Program-made: the position numbers and the translations under genes
Assembly (NCBI GenBank): GCA_963845355.1
Contig: CAWJRV010000038.1
Span: 13,590-77,589 of the forward strand
DNA length: 64,000 nucleotides
Direction: 5' to 3'
Origin: an uncultured Actinomycetes bacterium
GTDB lineage: Bacteria; Actinomycetota; Thermoleophilia; UBA2241
In this document: piece after piece, positions 27,812 to 49,286 of the stretch
Layout: the number at the start of each line of letters is the position of its first letter
How positions within the stretch are numbered: the stretch's first letter is position 1
Notes under the pieces: generated by a model
Database searches by the model: none
What the model was told of the DNA's origin: nothing
Seen by the model: the letters and a program-made list of their open reading frames with translations, nothing else

Positions 27812-28015
<204 letters not shown>

Positions 28016-31251: not shown

Positions 31252-31411
31252 TGTGGGTCAGTCCAGACAGCCGCATCGAGCGGAAAGCTCGCACGAGGCA
31301 TTCGAGTGGGCCGGCGTCGACCGGCGGTGCGGGCTCGGACTCCGAAGGACCTGCAGCGCGAACCGCAGACGAACCGGGCGCCCACGACCGCGGCGCACCA
31401 AGGTCAGTGGC

Positions 31412-31705
31412 CTAGCGCTGCCTCACGTCACGATAGAAGCCGCCGTCGCGGGTTTTGGTCTGGCATGCCTCGCAGTAGTCTTCAAGGTTGTACACCGACA
31501 GCAGTGCCTGGCAGCGGCAGCAGCGCCGAACGACCTTCTGCGGCGCCCAGTCCGCCGTCTCTTCGCGAAGGCGCTGGCGTTCGGACGCCAGGAGCCGGAC
31601 GCCCGATCCGGCGAGGCAGCGCAGGCAGCGGCCCGTGTTCATCTCTGAACCGAGACCGGCGAGTTTCGCGCCACACGACCGGCAGTAGACGTAACGGTAC
31701 GGCAT
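31412..31705 (-). CDS. Cys-rich small protein (two zinc-ribbon-like CxxC pairs)
   Basis: MPYRYVYCRSCGAKL...GRCLRCL...RRCCRCQALLSVYNLEDYCEACQ. It overlaps the 3' part of ORF 31482..31868. Confidence 0.55.
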   Translation of the reverse strand: MPYRYVYCRSCGAKLAGLGSEMNTGRCLRCLAGSGVRLLASERQRLREETADWAPQKVVRRCCRCQALLSVYNLEDYCEACQTKTRDGGFYRDVRQR

Positions 31706-31868
31706 GCTGCCAGCCTACCATCGTCTGCTTCTTCAGGAATCTCAAGTAGAAGGCCGCAAGGACCATGACGATGCCGCTATTCACTATCAGCCGTGGCCAG
31801 AAGTGATGCCTGAAGAACAGAACATCCAGGCTGACGACGACGGCTATCAATACCACGACGTAAGGCAC
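31482..31868 (-). CDS. small membrane protein; only the first 50 codons or so look genuine
   Basis: MPYVVVLIAVVVSLDVLFFRHHFWPRLIVNSGIVMVLAAFYLRFLKKQ gives two TM in a locally lower-GC stretch. The remainder is Arg/Pro-rich and overlaps 31412..31705. Confidence 0.45.
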   Translation of the reverse strand: MPYVVVLIAVVVSLDVLFFRHHFWPRLIVNSGIVMVLAAFYLRFLKKQTMVGWQHAVPLRLLPVVWRETRRSRFRDEHGPLPALPRRIGRPAPGVRTPAPSRRDGGLGAAEGRSALLPLPGTAVGVQP

Positions 31869-32040
31869 CGCGGGGTCGCGACGTCCCGTGGCGTGTCGTC
31901 GGGGTCGTCGCTCGGGCCGTTCCCATCCGCCTGCGTCACCACGTTCCTGCCAGGGTCGCGATGCTCAATTTGGTCATGCTCGATTCCGGAGCGGCCGATG
32001 ACGTTCGTATGGGTCGCCAGAATCACGACAGAGCTCGGAC

Positions 32041-33006
32041 ATGACACGCGGGAAGGCCGCCACGCGGTCGAAGGCCGTGCTGATATGTGCTGGGCTCGCT
32101 CTGCTGGCCGGCGTCCTGCTCAGCCCTTGGCTGGTGGCGCCGGCCAGGGGTCAGCGCGGCATACAGTCAGGACCGGCTCGTCACCTGATCCGCTACACCG
32201 CCTGGGACGGGCACCTGCGGTCCGCCGTGCTGCTCCTGCCCGCCTGGTACAAGCGAGGTTCCACGGCGAACCTGCCGCTGGTGATCACGCCTCATGGCCG
32301 CGGCGAGAGTCCGGTGTTCATGGCCGACCGTTGGGGGCGGCTGCCGAACCGCGAGGGCTTTGCCGTCATCTGCCCGGCGGGTGAAGGCGAACGGCTGCCT
32401 GGTTACTCGTGTGCCGCCCCCGGCCAGATCTCCGATCTGGCCCGCATGCCGGCCGTCATCGAGAGCGCTCTGCCGTGGGTGCATATCGACCGGCGCCGGG
32501 TCTACGTTGTGGGCTGCAGCATGGGCGGACAGGAGGCCCTGGTCCTGGCGGCCAGGTACCCCGACCGCATCGCCGCCGCCGTGAGCGTCGACGGCCTGGC
32601 TGATCTGGCGAGCCACTACTATGACATGCCGTGCCCCCGACGAAGCGGCCGTGTGGTCTTGCACGACATGGTTGTCGAGTGCGGCGGCACGCCCGCGCAG
32701 AAGCCGCTTTCCTACGCTCTGCGCAGCCCGCTGACATACGCCGAGGATCTGGCCTTCGACGACGTGCCTGTCGAGCTCTGGTGGAGTCGCAGCGACCAGG
32801 TCGTGGTCGACCAGGCCCGCGCTCAGTCGGGCCTGCTCTATCGTCGCATTCGGTCGTTGAATCCGGGCGCGCCCGTTCGGGAGATCGTGACCAACTACCC
32901 TCACTGCGCTGCGTTCTGTGCCGCGATCGCCTTGCCGCGCGTCGTTGCGTTCCTGCGGCCCGATGGACGCTGGCGCTGCGCGCGGACCGCACCGCCCCTC
33001 CGGTGA
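32041..33006 (+). CDS. secreted alpha/beta hydrolase (esterase/depolymerase-like)
   Basis: N-terminal TM/signal and the nucleophile elbow VYVVGCSMGGQEALVLAARYPDR. 321 aa. Confidence 0.8.
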   Translation: MTRGKAATRSKAVLICAGLALLAGVLLSPWLVAPARGQRGIQSGPARHLIRYTAWDGHLRSAVLLLPAWYKRGSTANLPLVITPHGRGESPVFMADRWGRLPNREGFAVICPAGEGERLPGYSCAAPGQISDLARMPAVIESALPWVHIDRRRVYVVGCSMGGQEALVLAARYPDRIAAAVSVDGLADLASHYYDMPCPRRSGRVVLHDMVVECGGTPAQKPLSYALRSPLTYAEDLAFDDVPVELWWSRSDQVVVDQARAQSGLLYRRIRSLNPGAPVREIVTNYPHCAAFCAAIALPRVVAFLRPDGRWRCARTAPPLR

Positions 33007-33263
33007 TGCGGTCGCGGCTCTGAGGCCCCACGAGTGGGCAAGCCTCTCATCGACCAGCTGTTGCAACGACTCGCACTCGCCGGCGGCGTCTCGGAGCTTG
33101 GCCGCTCGGTGCGGGCCCTGCCCGAGCAAGCGGGCCTTGCCGGTCCCCGAGGCTGCGGAGGTGTCTTCGTCGCGTCCGGAGAGTCCCAGCCGTGCCTGCG
33201 GGTGAACTCGAAGCCCCACGTCTGCGTCTCCATGATCGAACGCTGACCGATCAGGGAGCCGTC

Positions 33264-33629
33264 ATGTCAAGATTCTCACGCTGCCTTGCGATCGCACCGC
33301 TGGTCGCTCTCGCGATGCTCTCGCTCTCGTCCTGCGGCACGGCCGCGCCGGCGGCCCACAGCGGCGTACAAGGCATGGCGATGCTCGCGGGTGGACCGGC
33401 TCCGGGGAGCCCCCGGCCCGAGCCCGGCGTCGCTATCGCCGTCCATCAGGACGACCTCCACGGCACGATCGTGGCCCGGACCAAGGCGGGCCCCTCCGGA
33501 GCGTTCAAGGTCGACCTCTCGCCGGGCACCTACACGCTCATCGAAGGCTCCGATGCGGCTCAGTCTCAGACGATCGTCGTCGAGCCAGGCAAGTACATCA
33601 CGGTCACGCTCACGATCGATGCCCCATAG
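33264..33629 (+). CDS. lipoprotein, beta-sandwich type (paralog of 28188..28595)
   Basis: ATG after GGGAG. MSRFSRCLAIAPLVALAMLSLSSCG lipobox. ...FKVDLSPGTYTLIEG...IVVEPGKYITVTLTI. Confidence 0.65.
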   Translation: MSRFSRCLAIAPLVALAMLSLSSCGTAAPAAHSGVQGMAMLAGGPAPGSPRPEPGVAIAVHQDDLHGTIVARTKAGPSGAFKVDLSPGTYTLIEGSDAAQSQTIVVEPGKYITVTLTIDAP

Positions 33630-34170
33630 GCGCTGCTAGGACGGCACGAGGGCGGTGCTCTGCGGGTATGCAGTTGGGCTGCGACCAACCGCTGACGTGC
33701 ATGGTCAACCGCCGATTGTTGGCCTCGCCCACCTGGGTCGGGGAGTTCCTCTCCTTGCTGTCGCCCAAGCCGAGCTGCCCCTTCCAGTCGGCTCCCCAGG
33801 CCCATAGCGTGCCATTCTTCTTGATAGCGAAGCTGGAGCCGACGTCGCTTGCGATGGTCGACCAGTCACGGGCGGCACCGACTCTGGTCGGGCTGAGACG
33901 CGTCTCGGTGTTGCCCAGGCCCAGCTCGCCGACCTCGCCGCTGCCCCAGGCCCACAACGTGCCGTCTTTGGCGAGGGCCAGCGTGTGATCGTACCCGCCG
34001 GCGACCCTCAGCCAGTCGCTCGTGGCTGCCGCCGTGTGGGTTGCGGTCGCGGTGGCGCTTGCGCCGGGCGGTGAGGAGCCGACAGAAGCACTGCGATCAC
34101 CACACCCGTAGAGGAGAGGCGCGACAAGCAAGCCGGCACAGGCGAGCAGACGGACAAAAGTGCGTCGCAA
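33610..34170 (-). CDS. short RCC1-repeat lipoprotein (2-3 blades only)
   Basis: MRRTFVRLLACAGLLVAPLLYGCG lipobox. DGTLWAWGSGEVGELGLGNT and NGTLWAWGADWKGQLGLGDS. The C-terminal 40 aa are unlike RCC1. Confidence 0.7.
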   Translation of the reverse strand: MRRTFVRLLACAGLLVAPLLYGCGDRSASVGSSPPGASATATATHTAAATSDWLRVAGGYDHTLALAKDGTLWAWGSGEVGELGLGNTETRLSPTRVGAARDWSTIASDVGSSFAIKKNGTLWAWGADWKGQLGLGDSKERNSPTQVGEANNRRLTMHVSGWSQPNCIPAEHRPRAVLAAPMGHRS

Positions 34171-34363
34171 GAAGAACCTCCTTCAGCGGCCTGGTAGCCG
34201 ACTCTTCGACCGTGGTGTCGACAAGTCGGCGCACCGAGCTTAGGCCTGTCGAAAGCCCCATGGTTGGTCTGTTCAAGCCTTGGTTATCGGTGCTTGCGTG
34301 CGGGCAGGTCGTATGGCAGCGGCCATCTGCGGCCCCCGGGGAGCGCAGAGTGGTTGCGGTCCC

Positions 34364-34774
34364 TCAGTCCGGCCACACGACCTGAAGCATCTCGCCGTCG
34401 CCGCCTTCGGGCTTCGGTCCGCCGATGGCGATCAGCTCGAGGCCCTCGGACCCCGCCGCGAACGCTCTGACGACCTCAGGCGCGACGCGCACCACGTCCC
34501 ACTGGTGGAGCTCATACGCCGTGCCGTCGAGCAGCACCTGACCGGCGCCGGCGGCCACGATGTAGACCTCTTCCTGTTGGCCGTGACGATGCCCGGTCGA
34601 GCCGCGCAGGTTCGGCGCGTAGCGAAAATGGCTGACGCCGATGTCGCGCGAGTCCAGGCTCGTGCGGGCGAAGCGACCCTCGAGGCCCTCGACCCGTCCC
34701 GAGACGGAGTCCTCGACCTCGAGCAAGTTGATGATGGTGAACCCTTCCATGAGCGCCTTTCGCTCGGGGATCAC
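34364..34774 (-). CDS. cupin domain protein
   Basis: GHRHGQQEEVYIVAAGAGQVLLDGTAYELHQWDVVRVAP contains cupin motifs 1 and 2. Confidence 0.8.
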   Translation of the reverse strand: MIPERKALMEGFTIINLLEVEDSVSGRVEGLEGRFARTSLDSRDIGVSHFRYAPNLRGSTGHRHGQQEEVYIVAAGAGQVLLDGTAYELHQWDVVRVAPEVVRAFAAGSEGLELIAIGGPKPEGGDGEMLQVVWPD

Positions 34775-34940
34775 TGCCCCGGCAGTCGCCCACCGGGATC
34801 GGAGCGGCGAGAAGCCTGCTCGGCTTGTTGACGCTAACGCAGGTGACAGTCGCGATTACCTACGACATCCGTGTGATCGCACCGGAACCGCCAGCCTGCA
34901 TGTCGCCTCGCCGCCGGTGAAGCGGCACCGAGGCGGGATC

Positions 34941-36293
34941 TCACCTGCGCACGGCCACCCTGACGACGGGAGTGAAGGCCGTGAACCCTGCGTCTTCGTC
35001 CGAGAAGCGGACCGCGTACCAGGTGGTGCGCGAAGGCCGCAGCAGGGGGCTGTGGAACTTGCCTTCGCTGCCGACGTAGAGATCTACGACCTTTGTCCAC
35101 CCCGGCGCCCTCAGATGCGAGGGCTCGCCCGCGCGGTGGTGCGTCATGAAAAGAGTGACCGTGAAGCCCTCCATGGTCGCCGTCTGGCCGCGGAGGCGCA
35201 CGACGCCGCCACGGTGAATCGACTGCCGCGAAGCGCCGATCGTGCAGACCTGGTAGTCGTCGTAGAGTTCAAGCAGGCTCTGTGGGTCGTCGCTGCGCGT
35301 GGCATAGATCTCATAGACATCGCCGACCGTCGCCCGCTTGGGGATGCGCAGCGAGACGGTGTAGCTCTGGTCGGTCCCCGTCGAGGTGACGACGGTCGCA
35401 GGATAGGTCTGGGTGCCCCAGTCGTCGGGCGAAAGCGAGGAGCCGAAGAACGACATCTGCTGGCCCGCCGGCAGGTTGGAGACGGCGAACCTGACGAGAC
35501 TGCCCGGCCGTCCGGCGTGCTGGCACAGCGGCCCCACCAGACGGCCAAGGACCGCCTGGCTCCAGTCGAACGAGACGGTGGTGCCGGCAAGCGTCCCCGG
35601 CGTCACAGCGACAGGGGTGTGGCTCGGGTTGACCCACTCGCACTCGGCCGACACCGTGTCGTGCGGGTTGTAGGAGTAGGCAACGCCGCTGTTGAAGTCC
35701 GGAGGAGCGGCGTTCACAACGCCTGAGCCCTGGGTGAGATCGATCTGGGTGTCTGCAGACGAACTGGCAGCGTCGCCCAGTGTCACGCCGATGGGCTGGC
35801 CGTCGAGGCCGTGAGCCACGGTCACGGCGACATGGCCCGGACGTAGCGTGTAGTTGTGGGTGGTCGAGAAGTCGAGTCCCCACTGGTCCAAGAAGTAAGA
35901 GCCCGTGTCGGAGTCAAAGACGAAAAGGTCATCGTGACCAGGGTCGGAGGTGACGGCTGGAAGCGAGAAGGTGCCGTCGCCGGCGGTGTTCGTTGTGCCA
36001 CCGTGGTGGTAGACGCCGGCGGTGGGAGACCAGGAGTCGCCGTCGGGGTCAAACCAGCCCCAGTCCACCTCGTAACCGGCCTGAGGATTGCCGAAGAAGT
36101 CCTCGGCAGTGCCGTTGATCGAGTAGGTGGAAGCCGACGACAGAATCGGCATTGAGAGCCGGCTCGGGGCCACCGAGTGCAAACGGAACGCGCGCGCCAT
36201 GGCCAGGTGGCCGTTCATGGTCGCTGCGTGGGCGGCGGGCGCTACGAGCAGCCCGATCGTCAGGAGTGCGACAAAAGCCAGACTGCGTTTCAT
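34941..36293 (-). CDS. secreted protein of an uncharacterised family of about 450 aa (paralog of 44941..46263)
   Basis: Inner ATG MKRSLAFVALLTIGLLVAPAAHA (signal). It shares blocks with 44941..46263, e.g. GPLCQHAGRPGSLVRF, YTVSLRIPKRATVGDVYEIY, LLRPSRTTWYAVRF, FTPVVRVAVR. Confidence 0.8.
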   Translation of the reverse strand: MKRSLAFVALLTIGLLVAPAAHAATMNGHLAMARAFRLHSVAPSRLSMPILSSASTYSINGTAEDFFGNPQAGYEVDWGWFDPDGDSWSPTAGVYHHGGTTNTAGDGTFSLPAVTSDPGHDDLFVFDSDTGSYFLDQWGLDFSTTHNYTLRPGHVAVTVAHGLDGQPIGVTLGDAASSSADTQIDLTQGSGVVNAAPPDFNSGVAYSYNPHDTVSAECEWVNPSHTPVAVTPGTLAGTTVSFDWSQAVLGRLVGPLCQHAGRPGSLVRFAVSNLPAGQQMSFFGSSLSPDDWGTQTYPATVVTSTGTDQSYTVSLRIPKRATVGDVYEIYATRSDDPQSLLELYDDYQVCTIGASRQSIHRGGVVRLRGQTATMEGFTVTLFMTHHRAGEPSHLRAPGWTKVVDLYVGSEGKFHSPLLRPSRTTWYAVRFSDEDAGFTAFTPVVRVAVRR

Positions 36294-36488
36294 GTGCCCC
36301 CCCAAGTCCACGCGTTCAGAAGATGGCCTGCGCTGCGGCCAGGCCCATATTATCTCATACGGACCACAGAAACTGGGCATCAGTGCTAGTGGGCGACATC
36401 GCACGAACCAACGGCCTTCGCCGTGGCTGGGCTGAGTGCCACCGAATGCATCGAGCACCGCTCACCGCCATCTTCTGCCCCCAGTTTC

Positions 36489-36506
36489 GGTTACAGGAGG
36501 GTTGCA
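36489..36506 (+). repeat. two GGTT(A/G)CA iterons, 11-bp phasing
   Basis: cGGTTACAggagGGTTGCAcgg. The flanking 60 nt or so resemble the arm next to tRNA-Glu (…CCATCTTCTGCCCCCAGTTTCGGTTACAGGAGGGTTGCA). Confidence 0.6.
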
Positions 36507-36672
36507 CGGCTAACCGATCGTTAGGGCATCTCCGACGGTGTCTCGGTCGCGAGAGCAGGCCGAAACTGTGTCCTGTCTCGCAAGACTCAAAGGCCGGCAG
36601 AGAGCAAGGAAGAAGCCAACGCGTTCCTCACTGTCCTGCCGCCGGTATCCACGTTTTGCCATCGGTCGACAA

Positions 36673-36888
36673 GTGCCCGCCAAGCTCCTCGTCAGCTTGG
36701 CAGCCTCGCTTGTGGCCTTGGTCGTCGCCGTCCCCGCCCTCGCCGATGGCGAGCCGCCGGCGCCCCTCTCGTCCTCGACTACCAACCTCGTCATCACCGG
36801 CATCGTGGTGGCCGCCGTGACCGTCGCGGCGGGGTTGGTCACAAGTCAAAGGCAACGCAGCGGCTACCGACAAGCCAGGGGTATATAG
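36673..36888 (+). CDS. possible small secreted/anchored protein
   Basis: GTG start. VPAKLLVSLAASLVALVVAVPALA signal-like, plus a C-terminal hydrophobic helix. There is no clear RBS. Confidence 0.35.
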   Translation: MPAKLLVSLAASLVALVVAVPALADGEPPAPLSSSTTNLVITGIVVAAVTVAAGLVTSQRQRSGYRQARGI

Positions 36889-36953
36889 CGTCGTGCTCCA
36901 CCTTCGCGGTGAGTGAGATTACGCCGGGACCTTTAGAGAAAGGACGCGGGACC

Positions 36954-37343
36954 ATGTCTAAGCCGACTCACGAGGATGCCGACCTGATGCTTCAGCTGGT
37001 ACGGTCGTGGCCAGTAGAGGCCACCGATTGGATGTGGAGCGACGAGTTCGTCGCCGACCCCAGCGAGTTCTCGGTCAAGAACGCCGAGGGCGGCAAGGGC
37101 TATGCCAACATCCGGGCCGTGCTCAACTGGTACGAGACGCTCGGCACCCTCCACAAGCACGGGCTGCTCAACGAGGACCTGCTGTTCGACTGGCTGGCGG
37201 TCGATCTCTCGTGGGACAGGATGAAGGGCCACGCTGTCGCGTGGCGTGCGGAGATCGGCAACCCGCACATGTATGAGAACTTCGAGGCCATGGCGAATGC
37301 GCAGAAGACGTGGGCGGCTGCCCGCGATCGCGAGGCCGCGTGA
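36954..37343 (+). CDS. hypothetical protein
   Basis: ATG after GAAAGGA. The 129 aa have normal composition (…NIRAVLNWYETLGTLHKHGLLNEDLLFDWLAV…). Confidence 0.6.
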   Translation: MSKPTHEDADLMLQLVRSWPVEATDWMWSDEFVADPSEFSVKNAEGGKGYANIRAVLNWYETLGTLHKHGLLNEDLLFDWLAVDLSWDRMKGHAVAWRAEIGNPHMYENFEAMANAQKTWAAARDREAA

Positions 37344-37415
37344 CGAGAGGCACAGGGCCGGTCTCCTCTCGCCACGGTCACTACGGTTCACGTGCTCGCC
37401 TAGGTGGGTACAGTC

Positions 37416-37525
37416 GCGCAGTCTCCGAGTTCGGAAGTCCTAAGGGCGCAACGGCCTAAGGTGCCCGAGCCGGTAGGGTGCAGTGCGAAAGCGCCGTGCC
37501 TCCCAGTGCGGAAAGGAGATGGCGC
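37416..37525 (+). promoter_or_regulatory. Moco/Tuco-type (molybdenum/tungsten cofactor) riboswitch candidate
   Basis: The closing stem GCGCAGUCUCC / GGAGAUGGCGC encloses CUCCGAG, GCCCGAGCCGGUAGGGUGC, a GUGC-GAAA-GCGC hairpin, GCCUCCC and GGAAAGGAG. These are the conserved blocks of the Moco RNA motif as I remember it. It lies upstream of a molybdate/tungstate transporter. Confidence 0.6.
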
Positions 37526-37667
37526 CATCAAGACCAGCGTCGCTAGTAGAGGGGACCTACACACCGTGCTTCTTGCGGACGGTCCGCGTTTCGGCGGAAT
37601 AGCCGGTGTGGTGGCCAACCTTCCTTCGCGTGCCGGGGTTTCGTGAATCGCGGCAGAGGAGGAAGAG

Positions 37668-38685
37668 TTGCACGCATTCGATCGAACGAAAATGCCTCGC
37701 AAGTGGTTGGCCCGGGCAGCCGCGCTTTCTGCCGTGGTGCTCGTGGTCGTCGCTGCGGCCGCCTGCGGCTCGAGTTCGAGTTCGTCAGCATCCACGAGCC
37801 CCAGCCCGAGCGCGGCGACTGCCAGCAAGACCCTGATCGTCTTCGGCGCCGGCACGCTGGCCAACCCCTTCACCCAGGATGATCGCCGCCTTCAAGGCGG
37901 CAAATCCCGGCGTCACCGTGAACTCCCACTTCGGCGCCAGCGGCGACGATGTCAAGGATATCACCCAGCTCGGGCAGCCCGCCGATGTGCTCGGCGTCGC
38001 CGACTACTCGCTGATTCCCAGCGAGATGTTCAACGTCAACGGGAAGAGCTACGCGAGCTGGTACATCGGCTTCGTCTCCAACCAGATCACCTTCGCCTAC
38101 ACAGCCACAGCAAGGGCGCCGCGCAACTGACGGCCAGCAACTGGTACAAAGTCCTGGCCGAGCCCGGGGTGCGCATCGGTCGCTCCAACCCGGCGGCCGA
38201 TCCCTCCGGCTATCAGATCCTTCAGGCGCTCAAGCTGGCGCAGAGCTACTACCACGACCCGAACTTTCGGCCTCGGTGCTGAAGAACTCACCCAGCTCCT
38301 CCGAGGCCGAGACCGAGACCTCGTTGCTCGGCGCCCTGCAGAGCGGCCAGATCGACTACCTGGCGATCTACCGCTCCGACGCCCTGCAGAACCACCTGAA
38401 GTACATCCATCTGCCCGCCGCAGATCAGCCTCTCTGACCCCGCTCTGGCCAAGTCCTATGCGACCGTAAGCGTGCAGGGCCCGACGGAATGGTCACTGGC
38501 AAGCCGATCATCTACGGCTTGACGGTTCCCAGCAACGCTCCCAACTCGGCCCTCGGCGAGCAGTTCGTCGCCTTCGTTCTGGGCCCAAGGGCCAGGCGAT
38601 CATGCGCGCCAACGGTTTCGTGGTCATCTCTCCAGCGCTGGCCAGCAGCACGAGCGCCGATTCCGGCGTCACTCGAGCTCGCTGA
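37668..38685 (+). pseudogene. molybdate/tungstate ABC transporter substrate-binding protein (WtpA/ModA type), multiply frameshifted
   Basis: TTG after GAGGAGGAAG with lipobox VVAAAACGSS. The recognisable sequence hops frames: TLIVFGAGTLANPFTQ | MIAAFKAANPGVTVNSHFGASGDDVKDITQLGQPADVLGVADYSLIP...ITFAYTA | AQLTASNWYKVLAEPGVRIGRSNPAADPSGYQILQALKLAQSYYHDPNF | ...LLGALQSGQIDYLAIYRSDALQNHLKYIHLP | QISLSDPALAKSYATVSVQG | VTGKPIIYGLTVPSNAPNSALGEQFVAFVLGP | KGQAIMRANGFVVISPA. Confidence 0.8.
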
Positions 38686-38716
38686 CCAAGGCCGTGGCCG
38701 AAGTAAGAGCTGTGTC

Positions 38717-39606
38717 ATGACTGATTCTCGGGCCACCGCCGAACATCCAGGTGTAGCCGGCGGTGGCCCGGCCGACAGATCGGCGGGCCGGCGCCCGCCG
38801 CGGTGGCCTTCCGGCCTGTTCCAGGCACTGCTGTGGTTGGCTCAGCGGCTTGCTGATTGCCTTCATCGTGCTGCCCATCGTGCGCCTGGCGGCGACTTCG
38901 TCGCCCTCTAGCCTGATCAGCGCGGCAAGCGAAGCCGAGGTACGTAACGCCATCGTCTTGAGCCTGCAGGATGCGGCGATCACGGCCGTGATCGCCACCC
39001 TGCTGGGCGTGCCGCTTGCCTACCTGCTCGCCCAGCGTCGCATCCCCGCGCCCGGACTCGTGCAGGCCATCGTCGATCTGCCACTGGCGGTGCCGCACAC
39101 GGTGGCTGGCATCGCCCTGCTCGTTCTTGCTGGGGCGCACCGGCTGGGTCGGTGCCCCGGCGGGGCACCTCGGCGTGTCCTTCTACGGGTCACAGTGGGG
39201 CATCGTGGCAGCCATGCTTTTCGTCAGTGCGCCGTTTGCCGTCAACAGCGCGCGGGTCGCCTTCGAGGCGATCGACCCCAATCTCGAACGCGCCGCCCGC
39301 AGTCTGGGCGCCACTCGCGCGCATACCTTTCGTCGCATCACGCTGCCGTTGGGCGCCCGCGGCGTGCTCACCGGTGCCGTGCTGGTATACGCACGTTCGA
39401 TCGCCGAGTTCGGCGCTGTGGTGATCATCGCCTACTACCCTGTCACGGCGCCCGTCGAGATCTACAATCTGTTCCTGCGTTCCGGTCTGGCGGCTGCTTC
39501 GTCAGCCTCCGTGCTGCTGCTGATCGTGGCGCTGGCGACCTTCCTCGTGCTACGCACTCTGGCCTCTGGCCGCTGGCTGTGGATCGCTGACCGTGGCCCT
39601 CGCTGA
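38717..39606 (+). pseudogene. ABC transporter permease (molybdate/tungstate type), frameshifted
   Basis: Three frames are needed: MTDSRATAEH.. | LLIAFIVLPIVRLAATSSPSSLISAASEAEVRNAIVLSLQDAAITAVIATLLGVPLAYLLAQRR...VDLPLAVPHTVAGIALL | LLGRTGWVG...AMLFVSAPFAVNSARVAFEAIDPNLERAARSLGATRAHTFRRITLPLGARGVLTGAVLVYARSIAEFGAV (EAA-loop region). Confidence 0.8.
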
Positions 39607-40686
39607 CAGCGGCCTGGTCATCGAGGGCGTCAGAGCGCGCGCCGGCTCATTCGAGCTTGGCCCGATCGATCTCGACGTGAAATGTGATCGCGTGCTGGCG
39701 GTCCTCGGGCCCTCCGGTGCTGGCAAGACGATGCTGCTCGAGACGATCGCCGGCTTTCGCGCGGCTGCTGGCGGGCGCCATCTCGCCTGGGCGGCAGGCA
39801 GCTGGGGCGGCTGCCCCCGGAAGAGCGCGCCATCGGCTTCGTCTTCCAAAACGCAGCCCTGTTCCCGCACCTGTCGGTGCGCGACAACGTGGGCTTTGCC
39901 CTTCGCGCCCGCGGCGAGCGCCACTACGGCAGCGCGTTGACGCGCTGCTGGCTCGCTTCGAAATCATGTCACTTGCCGAGCGATCACCTGCGCTCACTGA
40001 GCGGCGGCGAGCGTCAGCGCGTGGCTCTGGCGCGAGCGCTGGCCGCGGCACCCGGGCTGCTCCTCTTGGACGAACCGCTCTCGGCGCTCGACCGACCCAC
40101 GCGCGACGATCTGCGCATCGTCCTGCAAGAGCTGCTTGGCGGACTGGGGATCCCGGCTATCCACGTCACCCACGACCGCGACGAGGCGCTCAGCATCGCG
40201 GACCAGGTCGCCGTCGTTGTCGCTGGGAAGGTTCGCCAACTGGCCGGTGCCCACGAGATCGTTGCTCAGCCGGCAGATGACACCTGCGCGCGGCTGCTGG
40301 GCTGGTCCGAGCTTGGTGTCGGACGCCTCGATCACGGCGTGCTGACGGTAGGTGCCCTCGTGCTCCCCGCTCACGGCGCTCTCGACGGCTGGAATGGTCC
40401 GGTCTCAGTCTTCTACCGGCCTGAGTCTGTGCTTCTGGGCGTCGAGGCCGCAGGAAACCCCGGCGGCGCAGCGTTCGAGGCCACGGTCGATCGCGTCCTA
40501 CCGACGACGCCGCTTGCTCGAGTCGTTCTTGGGGGCGAGACGGCCATGACCGCTCTGCTACTAGCACGCGACCTGGGGCCGCTGGACCTGCGACCTGGAG
40601 CATCAGTCAAGGTCGGGCTGCCGCCGGGCTCACTGTGCATCTTCCCGCTGGCTGATGTGCGCGACGGATCAGACCCGGTCGACTGA
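39593..40686 (+). pseudogene. ABC transporter ATP-binding protein, frameshifted
   Basis: Walker A LGPSGAGKTMLLETIAGF is in one frame. LPPEERAIGFVFQNAALFPHLSVRDNVGFAL is in a second. RVDALLARFEIMSLAERSP is in a third. It then returns to LSGGERQRVALARALAAAPGLLLLDEPLSALD...HVTHDRDEAL. The GTG start overlaps the permease stop. Confidence 0.8.
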
Positions 40687-40926
40687 TTCTTTGCTCCACG
40701 ACGGTGGCGTAGCGTTACGCTTGGAGAAGCTCGCGGGATAACCGTGCGCCAGGGAAGCCCTGCCGGTGAGTTGCAGGTGAGCTGCGGCATGGCGGCGTCC
40801 GCCATCCTGAGTACTCACGTCCATGGAATCAGGCGACGCGAACTCGACGGGCTTCATGCCTGACCTGCGGCCAGCTTGGCGCGAACCTTACGGCCAACCC
40901 TTCAGCTCCGCCCCTGTTGTGTCGAT

Positions 40927-40967
40927 GTGATTTACATCCTTATCGGAACGTGATTACCATGTATATT
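40927..40967 (+). promoter_or_regulatory. AT-rich patch with a direct repeat and a -10-like hexamer upstream of the TA pair
   Basis: GTGATTTACAT (40927-40937) and GTGATTACCAT (40950-40960), followed by TATATT. This is the only AT-rich stretch for kilobases. Its role as promoter or operator is inferred. Confidence 0.3.
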
Positions 40968-40981
40968 GCCGGGGGATAGCT

Positions 40982-41416
40982 ATGTTGTACGTAGCCAAGA
41001 GTGAAAGGTCGAGGACGATGACTGCTACCAAGTCCAACCTGGGGGAGCTGAATGGGGCGTGCCGCGCCGAGGCGATCAGGCTCGCGTTTCCGGAGCTCGT
41101 GTCGAAGCTGCAGGATCTGCTGACCCCACGACTCGTGGCCTATATCGGTTCAGTTGGTGAGACGCGCGCGGTCCGCCAGTGGGCGGAGGGCTCGCGAAAG
41201 CCGCAGGGTGACGTTGCGCGCCGGTTACGCGAGGCATACGCCCTCGCGTTGTGTATCTCACGAGAAGAGGATATCGAGGCAACTCAAGCCTGGTTTCAAG
41301 GGCTGAACCCGCTGCTCGGTGATGCTGCGCCTGCCCGGCTGCTTCGGGACGGCGACCTTGACAAGGTCGGTCCCATGGTCATCAGGGCTGAACGGCACTT
41401 CCTTGCCGAAGGGTGA
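40982..41416 (+). CDS. Xre/ParS/MbcA-type antitoxin (DUF2384 toxin-binding domain)
   Basis: 144 aa. ...TRAVRQWAEGSRKPQGDVARRLREAYALALCIS...EATQAWFQGLNPLLGDAAPARLLRDGDLDKV. The stop overlaps the GTG of the RES gene (GTGA). Confidence 0.8.
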   Translation: MLYVAKSERSRTMTATKSNLGELNGACRAEAIRLAFPELVSKLQDLLTPRLVAYIGSVGETRAVRQWAEGSRKPQGDVARRLREAYALALCISREEDIEATQAWFQGLNPLLGDAAPARLLRDGDLDKVGPMVIRAERHFLAEG

Positions 41417-42105
41417 CTCTGCTCCTCGACACCGAGGCGGCACCCACTACGCTCTACCGCGTGGGAAACGAACCGGACCCCTGGGATTGGCCGGGTTGGT
41501 CATACATCGGTGGTGAACGGTGGGATGACCCCCGTCGTGAATACCGGGTTCTCTACGCAAGCTACGATCGGGTCGGTGCACTTCTCGAGGTGTTCGCCAA
41601 GTTCCGGCCTGGCCTTGATCAGATAGTGAACGAGAGCGACCCGCATGCTGCGTCTCCCTTTCCAATGGGCGTTGTCCCTGTGGGCTGGCTGTCCCGACGA
41701 GTGATCACAAGGGGCGTCGCGTCCGGCGTGCATGGGCCGCTTGTCAAGGTGGGAGGGGAGCAGTCACTCGCGGCGCTTCGTCGTGCCTCCGATCTCGCCG
41801 CGCTGCTCGTCGCGCACGGGGTCGAGGACCTCGACACGAGCACGATCCGCAGCGCTGACGCAGACGTGACTCAGGCAATCTCAAGGGTCGTATTCGAAGA
41901 GATGCAGGCCAACGGGGACTCCTACGCCGGCATCTACTACCTCTCGCGGTACAGCGACAACGTTCCGAACTGCGCCCTTTTTGAACGCGCAACCGGAGCC
42001 CCTGTTTCGGTGACGCTCTTGGACCGCTCTTCAATCGATCCCGACGACCCCGATGTCAAGAAGGCCTGCTCGTTGCTCGACCTCGAAATGGAGCCGCTCC
42101 ACTAG
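41413..42105 (+). CDS. RES domain toxin (NAD+-targeting family)
   Basis: YIGGERWDDPRREYRVLYASYDRVGALLEVFAKF (R and E regions) and YAGIYYLSRYSDNVPNCALFE (S region). At 230 aa it is longer than the usual RES proteins. Confidence 0.85.
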   Translation: MTLLLDTEAAPTTLYRVGNEPDPWDWPGWSYIGGERWDDPRREYRVLYASYDRVGALLEVFAKFRPGLDQIVNESDPHAASPFPMGVVPVGWLSRRVITRGVASGVHGPLVKVGGEQSLAALRRASDLAALLVAHGVEDLDTSTIRSADADVTQAISRVVFEEMQANGDSYAGIYYLSRYSDNVPNCALFERATGAPVSVTLLDRSSIDPDDPDVKKACSLLDLEMEPLH

Positions 42106-42355
42106 GATGTTCGGGCCGGCGGGGAGGTGGGACAGCTCACAGTAGCTGTCGAAGGACGGCATATGACCTGACTACAGAGCGGGCCCCCGCCGGTCAATCG
42201 CCGACGGGAGCTCGCTGTGCGCGTGCTTGTGCGGTCTGGACGGGAGCAGGTGAACCCAGAGGAGTTCGAGCGGACGGAACTGCCACTGACTTTGCGGGCG
42301 GATCACAAGACCTACCGCCTCGACTGAAGGCCTGATCGAGGGAGACGGACGCCGG

Positions 42356-42736
42356 CTACGGCATGGTGTCGGGGGGCTTGTCTGACACTCGCGAAAGCGT
42401 CTCCACTGTCACCTCGGGGGACTCGTACTGGAGATGGCCCGCCGAATCGCGTTGGACGACATGCGTCTCGAACCTGGGCTTGTGGGTTGCCGGGTCTTGG
42501 AACTTCATCTCCATGATCAACTCGTTGCCGTCTCGCCTGTACAAGCTCGTGTCCAATCCGTGGCCGCGCTGGAGCACATCGACCTGGTAGACACTGTAGG
42601 TCTTGAAGATGCGCACCTCATAGGTGTCCGCCCGCCACGTCCCGACGAACGGATCCTTCGTGGCGCGGAAGGCACCCCCGGAACCGGCCAGCAGCAGGAC
42701 GACAGCAAGAATGGTGAAGTTGGCTATCACGCGCAT
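42356..42736 (-). CDS. secreted small protein (GTW lipocalin-like family, related to 47087 and 47805)
   Basis: MRVIANFTILAVVLLLAGSGGA signal, then DPFVGTWRADTYEVRIFKTYSVYQVDVL. The stretch is lower in GC. Confidence 0.65.
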   Translation of the reverse strand: MRVIANFTILAVVLLLAGSGGAFRATKDPFVGTWRADTYEVRIFKTYSVYQVDVLQRGHGLDTSLYRRDGNELIMEMKFQDPATHKPRFETHVVQRDSAGHLQYESPEVTVETLSRVSDKPPDTMP

Positions 42737-43011
42737 CGTGCGCTCCGAAGTCGCAGTTGGTCACCTTATCGGCAGCGGGGGACCCTGGCGTGAGCCACTT
42801 GCCCGCTTCCTCGATCCGGTGGGCGGGTGGCCCACACTGGTGTCAACGAAGGGCATCAAGCCCAGGCCCATGCGCGTCTTGTGGGGCGTTCTGACGCGAC
42901 TTCGGCAACGGCTTGCTCCGTCGCATATTAAGCAAAGATTAAGAACAATCGTCATTGGTGTTACGCACGCCCTAGAGGCGTCTACGCGAAGGTTGCCGGG
43001 GCAGCCTGATT

Positions 43012-43098
43012 GCGAAGGCACGAAAGGCAAACCGCCTGTGAGGGCGGGGCGCAAAGCCACAGGACTCGGAACACGGGAGTCGGCTGGGTTGCCGCGGC
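43012..43098 (+). promoter_or_regulatory. c-di-GMP class I (GEMM-I) riboswitch aptamer
   Basis: GCACGAAAGGCAAACC-[CCGCC UGUGA GGGCGG]-GGCGCAAAGCC-ACAG-[GACUC GGAACACG GAGUC]-GGCUGGGUUGCCG. It matches the GEMM-I hallmark blocks (GGCAAACC, ACGCAAAGCC, GGGUUGCCG) and the two-hairpin layout of Vc2-type aptamers. Confidence 0.75.
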
Positions 43099-43120
43099 AG
43101 CGCGCGTGACGCTGCAGTAC

Positions 43121-43160
43121 GACCTGTGGCTAGCCGGAGAGGAGCCGCGGGTCGTTTTTT
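43121..43160 (+). terminator. intrinsic terminator (riboswitch expression platform)
   Basis: GACCUGUGGC (43121-43130) pairs with GCCGCGGGUC (43144-43153): 10 bp, two of them G-U. A 13-nt loop, then GUUUUUU. It sits 69 nt before the pilin ATG. Confidence 0.7.
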
Positions 43161-43228
43161 CGTGGTCACCTCGCAAACAGCAGGGTCTGTAAGGTTTCGA
43201 CTCGATTGCGAAGGAGGTGACAACTCAC

Positions 43229-43648
43229 ATGAAGTCATTCACCAAGACCAAGGGCGAAAAGGGGTTCACCCTCATCGAGCTCCTGATCGTGATCATCATC
43301 ATCGGTATCCTGGCGGCGATCGCCATCCCGATGTTCCTGAATCAGAGGGACAAGGCCAAGGACGCCGCCGTCAAGGAGGGCATCCACAGCATCCAGGTGG
43401 GTATCGAGAGCTACGCGGTCGACCACAGCGACGCCTTCCCGGGCACCATCACCGACAAGACGCAGCTCGTCGACGCCAACGGCAACAACTACGTGGACAA
43501 CTGGCCCAAGAACCCGTTCTCCACGACCGGCGCCTACATGCAGAGCGGTACCGACCAGGGCAACTACACCTACACCGACATCCCGGCCTCGAGCACCTTC
43601 ACGCTGCAGGGCCACCTGTCCAACAGCGGACAGTTCCAGGTTCCGTGA
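43229..43648 (+). CDS. type IV pilin (prepilin N-terminal cleavage/methylation domain)
   Basis: ATG after [43 protein letters not shown] is the class III signal. Confidence 0.9.
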
Positions 43649-43674
43649 TCCAGGTTCGTCTGGATTGAGTGCCC

Positions 43675-43710
43675 CGAGGGGGCGGCTCTGCCGGTGCAAA
43701 GCCGCCCCCT
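43675..43710 (+). terminator. perfect 12-bp hairpin between the two pilin genes (no U-tract)
   Basis: GAGGGGGCGGCT (43675-43686), a 12-nt loop, AGCCGCCCCCTC (43699-43710). Confidence 0.35.
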
Positions 43711-43758
43711 CGAACGAGCATCGTGCCGGCAACCGATGGACCAGGGAGGGCAGCTCAG

Positions 43759-44157
43759 ATGAGAAAGCGCGCAGGCCAAAGGGGCTTCACGCTCATCGAG
43801 CTCCTGATCGTGATCATCATCGTCGGTATCCTGGCGGCGATCGCCATCCCGATGTTCTTGAACCAGAGGAACAAGGCCAAGGACGCCGCCGTCAAGGGCG
43901 GCGTGCACGTCATCGAGCTCGGCATCGCAAGCTACGCCATCGACCATGCCGACACGTATCCGGTCGCAGTGTCGAAGGCTACTCTGCTCGACACCAACGG
44001 CAGCTCCTACGTCGACAACTGGCCGAAGAACCCGTGGACGAATGTCGACATGCAGGACAGCTCCAATCTCGGCGACTACACCTACACGCAGATCGGCGGC
44101 GGCACGAACTTCCAGGCCGTGGGCCACATGAGCAGCGGCGGTTGGACAGTCCCGTAG
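43759..44157 (+). CDS. type IV pilin, tandem paralog
   Basis: ATG after [53 protein letters not shown]. It shares YVDNWPKNP with the first pilin. Confidence 0.9.
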
Positions 44158-44478
44158 GCGCTGCCGTCGTGACGAGGCATCCGTCGGTCGTAGCGGGCTC
44201 GAACCGCGCTTCACCCAAGTCGACGAGCGGACGGCGCGGCGCGGCGCACAATCCTTCAGGCTCGCCGAGCCACTTCTGCCGTTGCCGTCGCTGGTCTCGC
44301 CCACAGCCCAGCCGTGAGAGGGCAGTAGCGTACCTGTTCACGCCGAACGTTCCGCGCCCATGGTAGCCACGCTTCCACGCCCGCTTCAACCGGGCCGGAG
44401 GACGCTTCTCCAAAGCGGGCTGCGAGTGTCGCTGAGTGTCGTCGGGGCCGCTCCGTACCATCTTCTAGCGCCACGTTC

Positions 44479-44507
44479 GGTTGCAGGAGGGTTGCAAGCG
44501 GGTTGCA
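44479..44507 (+). repeat. three GGTTGCA iterons at 11-bp phasing
   Basis: cGGTTGCAggagGGTTGCAagcgGGTTGCAgaa. The copies start at 44479, 44490 and 44501. Confidence 0.85.
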
Positions 44508-44567
44508 GAAGGCGTTCCGAGAACACCGAGAAATGCATAAAACACCTGCAAATACGCCTGAAATGGG

Positions 44568-44614
44568 TGGTAGCGCATACCGGATTCGAACCGGTGTTAC
44601 CGCCGTGAGAGGGC
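44568..44614 (-). repeat. duplicated 3' half of tRNA-Glu (att-type direct repeat)
   Basis: TGGTAGCGCATACCGGATTCGAACCGGTGTTACCGCCGTGAGAGGGC is identical to 52041-52087. It covers the stretch from the anticodon stem to CCA. Confidence 0.9.
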
Positions 44615-44730
44615 AGTAGCCTTGGTGTCAGGGAGTGCCGCCGAGTGCCTTCAAGTGCCATCTCACGCTTGGCAAACCGAACCGAATTGCCGCCGAGTAC
44701 CACTGAGCGCCACCTAACGCAGCTGCCTTC

Positions 44731-44748
44731 GGTTGCAGGATGGTTGCA
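44731..44748 (+). repeat. two GGTTGCA iterons at 11-bp phasing (left arm of the island)
   Basis: cGGTTGCAggatGGTTGCAaga, in the same orientation as the triplets at 44479 and 51952. Confidence 0.8.
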
Positions 44749-44940
44749 AGACGCCGATGCGTGGCCGAAACCGCGCTACCGAGACGTCCGACTGTGAGGG
44801 CCCTGACCAAGACAGCCACCGCCCTCCATTTTCGCGCGAGCCTACGTTGCACAGCCGCCGCAGAGGTCTAGTATGGATATCGGAGGGGCCTGCGCCGGCG
44901 CGGCTGTGTGCAGCCCGACACGCATCGGTGGGGGGTCGCT

Positions 44941-46263
44941 GTGAGACGCCTGTTGACTTGTGCGTTCGCCGTGCTTGGCGCTGTGCTGCTTCTGGTGCCC
45001 GCCCCGGCGCTGGGGTCGCCAGGCGCGAGTCTCACCCCGGGTGCGGTACCGGTGAGTCATGTCGAGTCAGCGCAACTCGGCGGGGTCACCTATGCCATCA
45101 GCGGCACCGTCCTCGACTACTCGGGTAACCCCGTCAGTGGTGCTGCCGTCGGGTGGGGATGGATGCCGCCCGGCTATGAGCTGGATCCTTTGGTCGCGGC
45201 TCAGTTCGGAGGAGGCGTGCTAAGCACAGGTGGCCAGTTCTCGTTTACCACCGTCAGCTCGCACCCGGGCAACGACTGCCTCTTGGTGGAATACGAGGCT
45301 GCGTTTTCGCAACCACAATGGCTGGCAAGCTGGGCGTATGATTTCTCGGCGAATAACCAGGCAAGCTCGTACCGCTACTCCGTGCAGCCCGGCGCCATCG
45401 ACATACAGATCACCAAGCCGCCCGTCGGCTTCGATCCTCAGGTCGATGTCTACGGCGCTAACGGCATGGCTCAGTCCTTCCCCTCCCTGTTTTCGGGCGT
45501 GGAGCTCGTCCCGATGGCACCGCCGAGCTTCAACGACGTCGTGGTCAGTGACGTGCAGACGCCAGGCGACGCACAGAACGTGACGGCGGCTGCCGAGTGG
45601 CTGAGCCCAAGCGCGGTTCCTGTGGCCGCCGGGTCACAGGCATCCAGCCCGGTCGTCTTCGACTGGAGCCACGCCCAGCGCGCCTACCTCGCCGGGCCAC
45701 CCTGCCAGCACTGCGGTCGGCCGGGAAGCGTCGTCAGGGTGGTCCTCAAGGGCTGGCCGGCCGGTGAGAAGGCCGGCTTTCAGCTCACCGACTACAAGCC
45801 CTACCCGACCCAGGTGTCCTCCGCTGGTACCGACAAGACCTACGTCGTCAAACTACGAATCCCCAATAGCGCTGATCCGGGCGAGTCCTACGACCTGACC
45901 ACCTACCGCACCGACGACCCTGCCAGTCACCTCAGTCTGTGGGATGGTTTCCAGGTGTGCGCCTTCAGATCGACTGCCGACGTCGTCGTGCGCGGCACGG
46001 GCATCCGACTGCGCGGCACGGTGCCGTCGGCCGCACGGACTGTCTGGCTGTTCGCACGACACAGCGCAGCGGCGCGGCCGGCAACAGTGACTGCGCCGGG
46101 TTGGCACAAGGTCGGCCACTACCGGGCAAACGACAACGGCACGTTCGTGAGCGCTCTGCTTCATCCGAGCCGTACCACCTGGTATGTGGCGCGGTACCCG
46201 CGCAGCAGTGACGACGGCCCGAGCTTCTACTTCACACCGGTCGTCAAGGTCAGCGTGCGCTAG
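44941..46263 (+). CDS. secreted protein of an uncharacterised family of about 450 aa (paralog of 34941..36293)
   Basis: GTG (or the upstream start at 44908). VRRLLTCAFAVLGAVLLLVPAPALG signal. Shared blocks are GPPCQHCGRPGSVVRV, YVVKLRIPNSADPGESYDLT, LLHPSRTTWYVARY, FTPVVKVSVR. Confidence 0.8.
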   Translation: MRRLLTCAFAVLGAVLLLVPAPALGSPGASLTPGAVPVSHVESAQLGGVTYAISGTVLDYSGNPVSGAAVGWGWMPPGYELDPLVAAQFGGGVLSTGGQFSFTTVSSHPGNDCLLVEYEAAFSQPQWLASWAYDFSANNQASSYRYSVQPGAIDIQITKPPVGFDPQVDVYGANGMAQSFPSLFSGVELVPMAPPSFNDVVVSDVQTPGDAQNVTAAAEWLSPSAVPVAAGSQASSPVVFDWSHAQRAYLAGPPCQHCGRPGSVVRVVLKGWPAGEKAGFQLTDYKPYPTQVSSAGTDKTYVVKLRIPNSADPGESYDLTTYRTDDPASHLSLWDGFQVCAFRSTADVVVRGTGIRLRGTVPSAARTVWLFARHSAAARPATVTAPGWHKVGHYRANDNGTFVSALLHPSRTTWYVARYPRSSDDGPSFYFTPVVKVSVR

Positions 46264-46350
46264 GGGCGCTGCCCAAACGCCTCGCGTTCGGCAGTCAGCG
46301 TAGGACGTGGCTCGTTGGATGCGGGCATCTGCGGGTGGGCAAGGTGGCCG

Positions 46351-46450
46351 TCCCGGATACATCTCCGAGGCCGCGGAAGGTATCTCCGTCGCGCTCAGAG
46401 GTGGTCGGGGCTATCCGTGGCCGCGGTGAGCAGGAGAAGGCGGGGAAAGG
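46351..46450 (+). repeat. copy B of the unexplained intergenic element
   Basis: It shares the 25-mer GGCCGCGGAAGGTATCTCCGTCGCG with copy C, plus ...GGGCTATC(C/T)GTGGCCGCG(G/A)TGAGCA... Confidence 0.75.
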
Positions 46451-46584
46451 CCGCGAAATACGCCGAGTCGATGCCGACGGTGTCGCGCATCAAGGCATGC
46501 CCGTGCGACCGTGACGGCTTACGGAGAGAAGCGTAGGCTTTGTCGCAGTTGCTCGGCATGCACAACTACTGTCAGGCAGGGTGA

Positions 46585-46968
46585 ATGTTCGGACGCCAGC
46601 ACAACAAGCTCGTCAGTCACTTCCGCGCTTCGGCCGAGGAGGGCTTCGTCAACCTGCGCTGGCGTGTCACAGAAGCAAACGACGCTCGCTACCGAGTGTT
46701 GCGCTCGGAGCGACGCTACCCCGAGACGCCTGAGGCCACCGCCGACTGGGATCTCCTGTGGGAGGGTGCCGACTGCGACTATCAGGACCGCGGGGCGGCC
46801 GGGCAGCGACACTACTTCTATGTTCTCTACGCCCGCGGTCCTGCCGGTGACTGGCAGGAGCAGAGTCGCGCCCGCGTGAAGGCCAAGTCGTCGCCGGTAG
46901 AGCGCGCGTCTATTGAAGCGCGCAACCTCGGCATCGGGACCTATCCCATCCCTCCGACCGGACACTAG
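46585..46968 (+). CDS. small cytoplasmic Fn3-like protein (family with 52382 and the fragment at 49287)
   Basis: 127 aa. HFRASAEEGFVNLRWRV...YRVLRSE...WDLLWEG...GQRHYFYVLYARGPAGDW. No signal peptide. Confidence 0.6.
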   Translation: MFGRQHNKLVSHFRASAEEGFVNLRWRVTEANDARYRVLRSERRYPETPEATADWDLLWEGADCDYQDRGAAGQRHYFYVLYARGPAGDWQEQSRARVKAKSSPVERASIEARNLGIGTYPIPPTGH

Positions 46969-47086
46969 GCGCCGCCACATCTAGCAAGCGCATCAACATG
47001 ACGCGCCCGAGTGCCGCGATAGACTCCAGCCGCAGTCCGCGCAGGTTGTGCGCCCGACGTTAGCCCGACAGGCAGAAGGGGGAGCA

Positions 47087-47554
47087 ATGCTACTCCGCAG
47101 GTCTCGAATCCGCTGCGCTGCGCTCGGGCTTACGCTACTGCTGTCACCTTGCATGGTGGCCTCCGCCTGCGGCTCCGCCTCCGCCTCTTGGCAGGGAACC
47201 TGGATACCGACCTCCGGCGCGCTGCGTTTCCCCCATGAACTGGGGGAGGGTGGGCTCGCCTGGGCTCCGTCGGCCAAGTCCGGAGGCGGCATCGTTATCA
47301 CCAAGGCCGGCGACTCCTATGTCGCCACCCTTGTCAGCGACGACGGCACCCGCGTCCAGGGCAAGGCCGTAGTGCAAGGCAGAGACCTGCTCGTCTCCTA
47401 CGGCGTAGCCCGGTACCTCCTGCTCCCCGACGCGGCCGACAAGACCCGCCTGCTGCTGGCGGGCGACCAGGGCGGCTCGCCCGCGCCCCAGGTGGCGGCC
47501 ACCCTGCAGCCTGGCGCTCTTGCCCCGACACCCGTCGCGACGAATCTGCCGTGA
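47087..47554 (+). CDS. lipoprotein (GTW lipocalin-like family)
   Basis: ATG after GGGGGAG. LLLSPCMVASACGS lipobox. WQGTWIPTSG...IVITKAGDSYVATLVSDDGTRV. Confidence 0.7.
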   Translation: MLLRRSRIRCAALGLTLLLSPCMVASACGSASASWQGTWIPTSGALRFPHELGEGGLAWAPSAKSGGGIVITKAGDSYVATLVSDDGTRVQGKAVVQGRDLLVSYGVARYLLLPDAADKTRLLLAGDQGGSPAPQVAATLQPGALAPTPVATNLP

Positions 47555-47582
47555 ACTACTCAATGATCGTTAAGGCTCTCCA

Positions 47583-47682
47583 CCTCCGGATGCGCCTCCG
47601 CGGCCGCGGAAGGTATCTCCGTCGCGTTTCGAGGAGTCCGGGCTATCTGTGGCCGCGATGAGCACAAGAACGCGAAGGAGAG
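47583..47682 (+). repeat. copy C of the unexplained intergenic element
   Basis: CTCCGGATGCGCCTCCGCGGCCGCGGAAGGTATCTCCGTCGCGTTTCGAGGAGTCCGGGCTATCTGTGGCCGCGATGAGCACAAGAACGCG... Confidence 0.75.
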
Positions 47683-47804
47683 GCGTCGAGCGCACGCGGG
47701 TCGAGAGCGCGGGAAGGTCGAAGGCCAGAGCCATCACCCTGGCCCTACTGCTATGCTAGTCGTCAGGCGTACAGCGTCAACGCGACACAGGGGGTGTGAG
47801 GCCG

Positions 47805-48215
47805 ATGCGTTTCGTTACCAAGGCAGCCCTTGCCGCTTCGGTCGCGCTGACCTGCCTTCTTACGGTATCGGCCTGCGGCAACGGCATGAGCGGCTCGTGG
47901 GTGCCCAGTCGGGGAAGCGTCGTCTGGACAGACAAACAGGGGACTAGCGGCTACGACTTCGGCGGCACGGCGGCGCGGCCGGGTGGGCTGATCATCTCGA
48001 AAGACGGCGGGGGCTACAAAGTGACCCTCGTGAGCCGCGACGGTTCGCGCTACCCGACCATCGCGGGGATGGGCGGGGCCAGGCTGGAAGTCTTCGTTGG
48101 CGGCGCGCTCGTGCCGATGTTCTTCCTCTCCCAAGCCGCTACGAACACCTTGTCCATGGAGGCGCAGGAAGGTGGCTTTGTACACGTCATGGACTTCAAG
48201 CGGGGTTCGCCCTAG
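47805..48215 (+). CDS. lipoprotein (GTW lipocalin-like family, paralog of 47087)
   Basis: MRFVTKAALAASVALTCLLTVSACGNG lipobox. SGSWVPSRG...LIISKDGGGYKVTLVSRDGSRY. Confidence 0.7.
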   Translation: MRFVTKAALAASVALTCLLTVSACGNGMSGSWVPSRGSVVWTDKQGTSGYDFGGTAARPGGLIISKDGGGYKVTLVSRDGSRYPTIAGMGGARLEVFVGGALVPMFFLSQAATNTLSMEAQEGGFVHVMDFKRGSP

Positions 48216-48398
48216 CCGTTCGTCACACTCGCCGGGATGAAGCCCACCCCTCACGACCCCGCCTCCGGCTCCAGCAGGCGACCCGGCACGACTGCGCGCG
48301 CCTATCGGGTGCGCCGTGAGCGCGACCGCGGCGAAGGGCGACCGGGTCAAGGCCGCGGGCGATCGTGCTCAAGGTCGCCACAGTGTTAGGATTATCAG

Positions 48399-49034: not shown

Positions 49035-49286
49035 CGCCTGCTGCCTGACTAGATCACCCTGCGGGAATGCGGGCACGTGCGGGTAGGTAGGACGGCCACT
49101 CCGAACGCCGCAACCGATTCGAGGCCGTTGGCGTCCCACTAGCCTGGCCACCCAGCCGCAAGGCGACGTGTGCCCGAAAGCGTGGGCCGAGCATACACTC
49201 ATGCGGCTTGTGCTATCGTCACCGTAGTAGCTTCGTCAGGCCGGTTGCCAGCGACGACGCCGGCGCGGGCACTGGGAAGGATGGTC

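Follow-up and report, generated by a model that had tools for sequence, protein, structure and literature searches.

There are three co-directional genes at positions 37668-40686 of the window, which is the whole 64,000-nucleotide stretch of contig C38 that was analysed. These genes encode a substrate-binding lipoprotein, a permease, and an ATPase of an ABC transporter. None of the genes can be read in one frame and no long open reading frame (ORF) spans any of the three. Thus, the statement of a preliminary description of this DNA that the genes are readable only by hopping between frames is confirmed. The three genes, and the stretch in which all of the breaks lie, are as follows.

37668-38706, plus strand: gene for a WtpA-like substrate-binding lipoprotein (SBP_bac_11), start TTG at 37668, stop TAA at 38704-38706, nine one-base indels
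38717-39606, plus strand: gene for a WtpB-like ABC permease (BPD_transp_1), start ATG at 38717, stop TGA at 39604-39606, four indel events
39593-40686, plus strand: gene for a WtpC-like ABC ATPase with a C-terminal TOBE_2 domain, start GTG at 39593, stop TGA at 40684-40686, four one-base indels
37880-39991, strand not applicable: indel patch of 2.1 kb that holds all 16-17 indel events

The start of the ATPase gene (GTG at 39593) overlaps the end of the permease gene (TGA at 39604-39606). The operon is also present in G004 and G005, which are genomes from the same genus, with 84-85% nucleotide identity. A comparison with orthologous operons had been proposed as a check and was run on these two genomes; both operons are intact. 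In G004, the orthologues are three intact ORFs of 345 aa (binding protein), 296 aa (permease), and 354 aa (ATPase). A second, intact copy of the operon was not found in the genome that contains the window, and the only matches there were weak ones to ABC-ATPase paralogues.

The family of the transporter was assigned with the intact G004 orthologues, which were searched with Pfam and NCBIfam profiles. The G004 binding protein matches PF13531 (SBP_bac_11), the permease matches BPD_transp_1, and the ATPase matches ABC_tran and TOBE_2. The best NCBIfam matches of all three proteins are the WtpA, WtpB, and WtpC models. The operon resembles WtpABC (NF003196/TIGR03730, NF040839, and NF040840) in these best matches, in its order of binding protein, permease, and ATPase, and in the TOBE domain of the ATPase. 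It differs from WtpABC in that all three proteins score under the curated equivalog cut-offs. The G004 orthologues reached 251.9 bits against a cut-off of 355 for the WtpA model (225.1 against 242.75 for TIGR03730), 242.3 against 340 for WtpB, and 261.9 against 440 for WtpC. The transporter would therefore be a Wtp-like relative of an actinobacterial (Thermoleophilia-type) lineage. ModABC (TIGR01256, TIGR02141, and TIGR02142) has the same superfamily and operon architecture, and the permease and the ATPase also match the ModB and ModC models. However, the G004 binding protein misses the cut-off of the ModA model TIGR01256 (21.7 bits against 62.5) and all three proteins score higher on the Wtp models. 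The earlier identification of a molybdate/tungstate ABC operon is correct, with WtpABC as the best family match. More exactly, it can be labelled Wtp-like, as a predicted tungstate/molybdate ABC importer.

The indels were called from DNA alignments of the window with the intact operons of G004 and G005. Sixteen events were seen against both relatives and one more against G005 alone, which gives 16-17 events. There are ten insertions, at 37880, 38414, 38657, 38674, 38690, 38842, 39122, 39768, 39784, and 39989. Six deletions are common to both comparisons, at 38105, 38266, 38484, 38589, 38782 (2 nt), and 38802. The extra event, a -1 near 39930, shows up in the comparison with G005 alone because G004 contains a 3-nt gap of its own at this position. 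The binding protein gene contains nine of the events, the permease gene four (38782, 38802, 38842, and 39122), and the ATPase gene four (39768, 39784, ~39930, and 39989). Each of the roughly 11 sites counted before, in a 6/2/3 division over the three genes, was recovered, but that total was too low, as the alignments give 9/4/4. The six events beyond those 11 sites lie toward the 3' end of the binding protein gene and toward the 5' end of the permease gene. Indels are absent from the first ~210 nt of the operon (37668-37879) and from the last ~700 nt (39992-40686).

All of the events are 1 nt in size except for the one of 2 nt, and both signs are represented (10 insertions and 6-7 deletions). 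Homopolymer runs hold only one or two of the 17 events. No shared motif was found among the contexts of the indels, which are unrelated to one another. One break near 38590 (GGCCCAAGGGCC) had been described as a 1-nt loss in a homopolymer, with A as the missing base. This does not hold, as the relatives read AGC GG at this position. What is missing is thus a C that follows AAG.

The residues can be read on both sides of every break, and this is what would be expected if the ribosome shifted frame, or decoded a quadruplet, at each of them. Programmed recoding of this kind is exceedingly improbable here. It would have to explain 17 events of mixed sign (+1 and -1) that share no slippery or four-base motif, and it was rejected on these grounds. 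In addition, a single frame suffices for the same protein in the orthologues and in the near-identical strains, and the same pattern is present in unrelated genes.

The neighbouring 20 kb of the window were used as a control. Logan contigs from anaerobic-digester runs, of strains that are 98-100% identical, were aligned to the better-covered positions 17501-37500. Three or four one-base indels were found in these 20 kb, at 17523, 20001, 20062, and a minor one at 33254. One in-frame 3-nt deletion polymorphism was also found at 31851. For these 20 kb, the remark that the rest of the window has no such density of disruptions is borne out. With about 8 indels per kb in the patch versus about 0.2 per kb in the neighbouring 20 kb, the cluster is far beyond chance and local within this window. 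The longest pieces of the control have 128 substitutions in 11,174 nt (1.15%). In comparable pieces of the patch, 2,375 nt contain about 41 substitutions (1.7%) and 14 gaps. The indel-to-substitution ratio is about 1:3 inside the patch versus about 1:30 or lower outside of it. Indels are enriched 15- to 40-fold in the patch, the range reflecting per-nt rates in the pieces versus per-kb site densities, and substitutions are about equal.

Some of the isolated differences in the control can be described further. Behind 17523, the short-read contigs of near-identical strains carry one extra G. The differences at 20001 and 20062 form a -1/+1 pair with a spacing of 61 nt and lie near divergent gene starts. 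These one-base differences (17523, 20001, and 20062) could be additional consensus errors or could reflect intergenic variation between strains.

Near-identical strains from other metagenomes were compared over the patch itself. Short-read (Logan) contigs of strains that are 97-100% identical were available from five runs, of which X1, X3, X4, and X8 are from digesters and X2 is from soil. Of the 17 sites, about 10 have such contigs and seven have none, and the intact state was found at every covered site. The intact state was seen at 37880, 38266, 38413, 38484, 38777, 38802, 38840, 39122, and 39991. Every contig difference at these sites restores the frame of G004 and G005. The version in the window is backed by no contig of these strains at any covered site. 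Little coverage over the patch was added by runs X7, X8, X5, and X9, and the best share of the flanking sequence's sampled words among the public runs searched was 0.53. The contigs belong to related strains with 1-2% substitutions from other samples and not to the source population. They prove that intact alleles circulate but strictly not that the allele of this strain is intact. As far as these alignments go, the allele in the window differs from those of the near-identical strains almost only by indels.

Patches of the same kind are present elsewhere in the assembly. The training set of a 3-periodic second-order Markov model was 482 long ORFs with high GC3 from this genome, and the model separates the right frame from the wrong frame by 0.32 nats per nt. 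A 7-state Viterbi frame-tracking HMM was run over all contigs of the 2.16-Mb genome. A patch was defined as four or more same-strand frame changes with a spacing of 500 nt or less. The scan found at least 13 other patches in unrelated genes, a number that is a lower bound and not a census, and two of them have been confirmed by comparison. The HMM is conservative in that very short segments go to the non-coding state. The patch in the operon was itself only partly caught and is unflagged under the strict rule.

The first of the confirmed patches (C23:22078-24173; L011:1579-3674) is in a gene that is sulfatase-like. Compared with a single row, the G005 orthologue, which is 88% identical, this gene differs by 13 one-base indels, of which 12 are insertions and one is a deletion. 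These indels coincide with the frame-switch positions of the HMM. The second (C38:98242-99753; L014:2243-3754) lies on the same contig as the operon, past the end of the window. It has nine insertions of 1-2 nt against short-read contigs from runs X3 and X7, and no indels were found in its well-covered flanks of 2 kb. The following candidate patches were flagged by the HMM.

C5, 117.6-121.2 kb: candidate patch
C24, 13.2-17.1 kb: candidate patch
C33, 33.1-34.8 kb: candidate patch at the contig end
C20, 5.8-6.8 kb: candidate patch
C37, 32.1-32.8 kb: candidate patch
C8, 16.8-17.7 kb: candidate patch
C15, 5.2-6.3 kb: candidate patch
C22, 73.7-74.5 kb: candidate patch
C32, 1.1-2.1 kb: candidate patch

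The genome is a metagenome-assembled genome (MAG) of 2.16 Mb in 53 contigs of up to 183 kb. It is 56.6% complete and has a G+C content of about 69%. The sister genomes are all MAGs as well (Actinomycetota/Thermoleophilia), and several have Flye-style contig names and come from a long-read soil survey. The length of the contigs (183 kb at most) for a MAG that is about half complete, together with the Flye-style names of the sisters, suggests that this is a long-read assembly, and we infer the platform from the same two observations.

The operon is at the edge of a lower-GC stretch at ~36-52 kb of the window, with 62-66% G+C versus 67-70% elsewhere. The genes in this stretch (~36000-52000) are short. 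Just upstream of the operon is a gene on the plus strand (36909-37343) that encodes a 144-aa DUF4760 protein (PF15956, E = 3.9e-15), and about 0.5 kb of poorly coding sequence lies between this gene and the operon. Directly 3' of the operon, on the plus strand at 40982-42105, a 144-aa ORF with no Pfam match overlaps by 4 nt the ORF of a protein of 230 aa with a RES domain (PF08808, E = 1.9e-10). In its arrangement, the pair is a putative toxin-antitoxin module of the RES type, with an Xre/ParS-like antitoxin. What comes after the operon in G004 is instead a gene for an adenylyltransferase of the MoeB/ThiF family, and synteny therefore breaks downstream of the operon. The operon is essentially undetectable in run X7, though this run holds 49% of the words of the backbone at 21001-31000. 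The operon is thus likely to be accessory in the population, and the stretch at ~36-52 kb probably represents an accessory or island region. Accessory regions are the kind in which depth drops and haplotypes mix in a metagenome assembly.

Two readings of the broken frames had been offered before, a very recent pseudogenisation of the whole operon and a local sequencing or assembly problem. In the first, the 17 indels in the operon would be real, as would similar loads in a dozen other genes. The indels are indeed present in the deposited sequence. The lower-GC, apparently accessory region and the failure to detect the operon in X7 also indicate that its loss could be tolerable in some strains. 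Selection on the operon was explored through dN/dS, which was calculated by the Nei-Gojobori method over 960 codons with the frame corrected through the alignment. The values are 0.169 against G004 and 0.169 against G005, versus 0.165 for the intact pair of G004 and G005, and the excess dN of the operon in the window is 0.009 or less. Relaxed selection on this lineage was not found in this comparison. Substitutions outnumber indels roughly 5- to 20-fold in bacterial pseudogenes, and 17 neutral indels would therefore imply about 85-340 substitutions in the 2.1 kb. Such a load is not compatible with so small an excess. Real bacterial decay is also biased to deletions, and these are of varied length, whereas the insertions here outnumber the deletions and nearly all of the events are exactly 1 nt. 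Furthermore, the 2-kb patches are in unrelated genes and are interspersed with flanking genes that are intact, and the near-identical contigs from other samples are all intact at the covered sites.

The need for the transporter can be considered from other genes in the genome, and the persistence of Mo/W enzymes and cofactor genes had been named as something to check. Such genes do persist. The gene for MoeA is open, with MoeA_N inside a 425-aa frame, and two genes of the molybdopterin oxidoreductase family (PF00384), of 776 and 1410 aa, are open as well. One of the PF00384 genes could encode a NuoG-like protein. Neither the MoaA C-domain nor PF02738 (MoCoBD_1, xanthine-dehydrogenase-type) was found in the genome, and this has little meaning as the MAG is only 57% complete. 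Loss or decay of the Mo/W cofactor pathway was not found in this 57%-complete MAG, in which MoeA and the PF00384 genes are open; the open MoeA gene and molybdoenzyme candidates count against decay of the operon. Pseudogenisation is unsupported because there are patches in unrelated genes, the near-identical strains are intact, dN/dS is unchanged, and the Mo-cofactor genes are kept. A genuine, very recent pseudogenisation is thus very unlikely. The other of the two readings, a local sequencing or assembly problem, is supported.

A variant of pseudogenisation would perhaps involve tract-wise, error-prone repair that gives mainly one-base indels over 1.5-4 kb. It is very unlikely that the indels are real and were left by a tract-wise process, for example long-patch error-prone repair synthesis, with about 1% one-base indels in at least a dozen segments of 1.5-4 kb. 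If they were real, they would be too recent for substitutions to have followed, and the W/Mo importer would be among the genes knocked out. They would also represent an undescribed form of tract-wise indel mutagenesis, and the evidence is against this.

The 16-17 frame breaks are very probably consensus errors in the MAG and not gene decay, in an operon that is otherwise ordinary. An ordinary operon for a WtpABC-like tungstate/molybdate importer, predicted to be functional, would underlie the broken reading frames. The assembly would most likely have been built from noisy long reads, a platform that we infer as above. In the accessory region, local low depth or mixed strains could be the cause. 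Poor polishing there would have left about 0.8% single-base insertions and deletions, confined to 2.1 kb. An artefact of this class is marked by one-base indels of both signs without a motif, by recurrence in unrelated genes, and by intact near-identical strains, and each of these was found.

Errors of this type have been described for other assemblies. Genes are known to be fragmented by indel noise in long-read assemblies; in published benchmarks, such noise truncates predicted proteins in long-read metagenome assemblies, and this is worse in soil-type, low-coverage data (PMC13087279; PMC12007338). The indels of the operon are like the indel errors of long-read (Nanopore or PacBio CLR) assemblies and MAGs with low or heterogeneous coverage in that they are single-base, are of both signs, and truncate conserved genes (PMC12007338, PMC13087279). 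They are also alike in that the indels here recur in unrelated genes and are absent from the short-read data of near-identical strains. Unlike such errors, the indels here are not evenly spread and occur in patchy tracts of 1.5-4 kb with clean flanks. A further difference is that the indels here lie mostly outside homopolymers, in an assembly whose platform and depth are themselves presumed.

These results call for caution in what is said of this bacterium from its genome. Automatic annotation would call the W/Mo operon, the sulfatase, and other genes pseudogenes or fragments. Such miscalls would depress estimates of completeness and could pass for genome decay or niche adaptation. The errors are also patchy, and a clean neighbourhood is thus no guarantee that a cluster of frameshifts is real.
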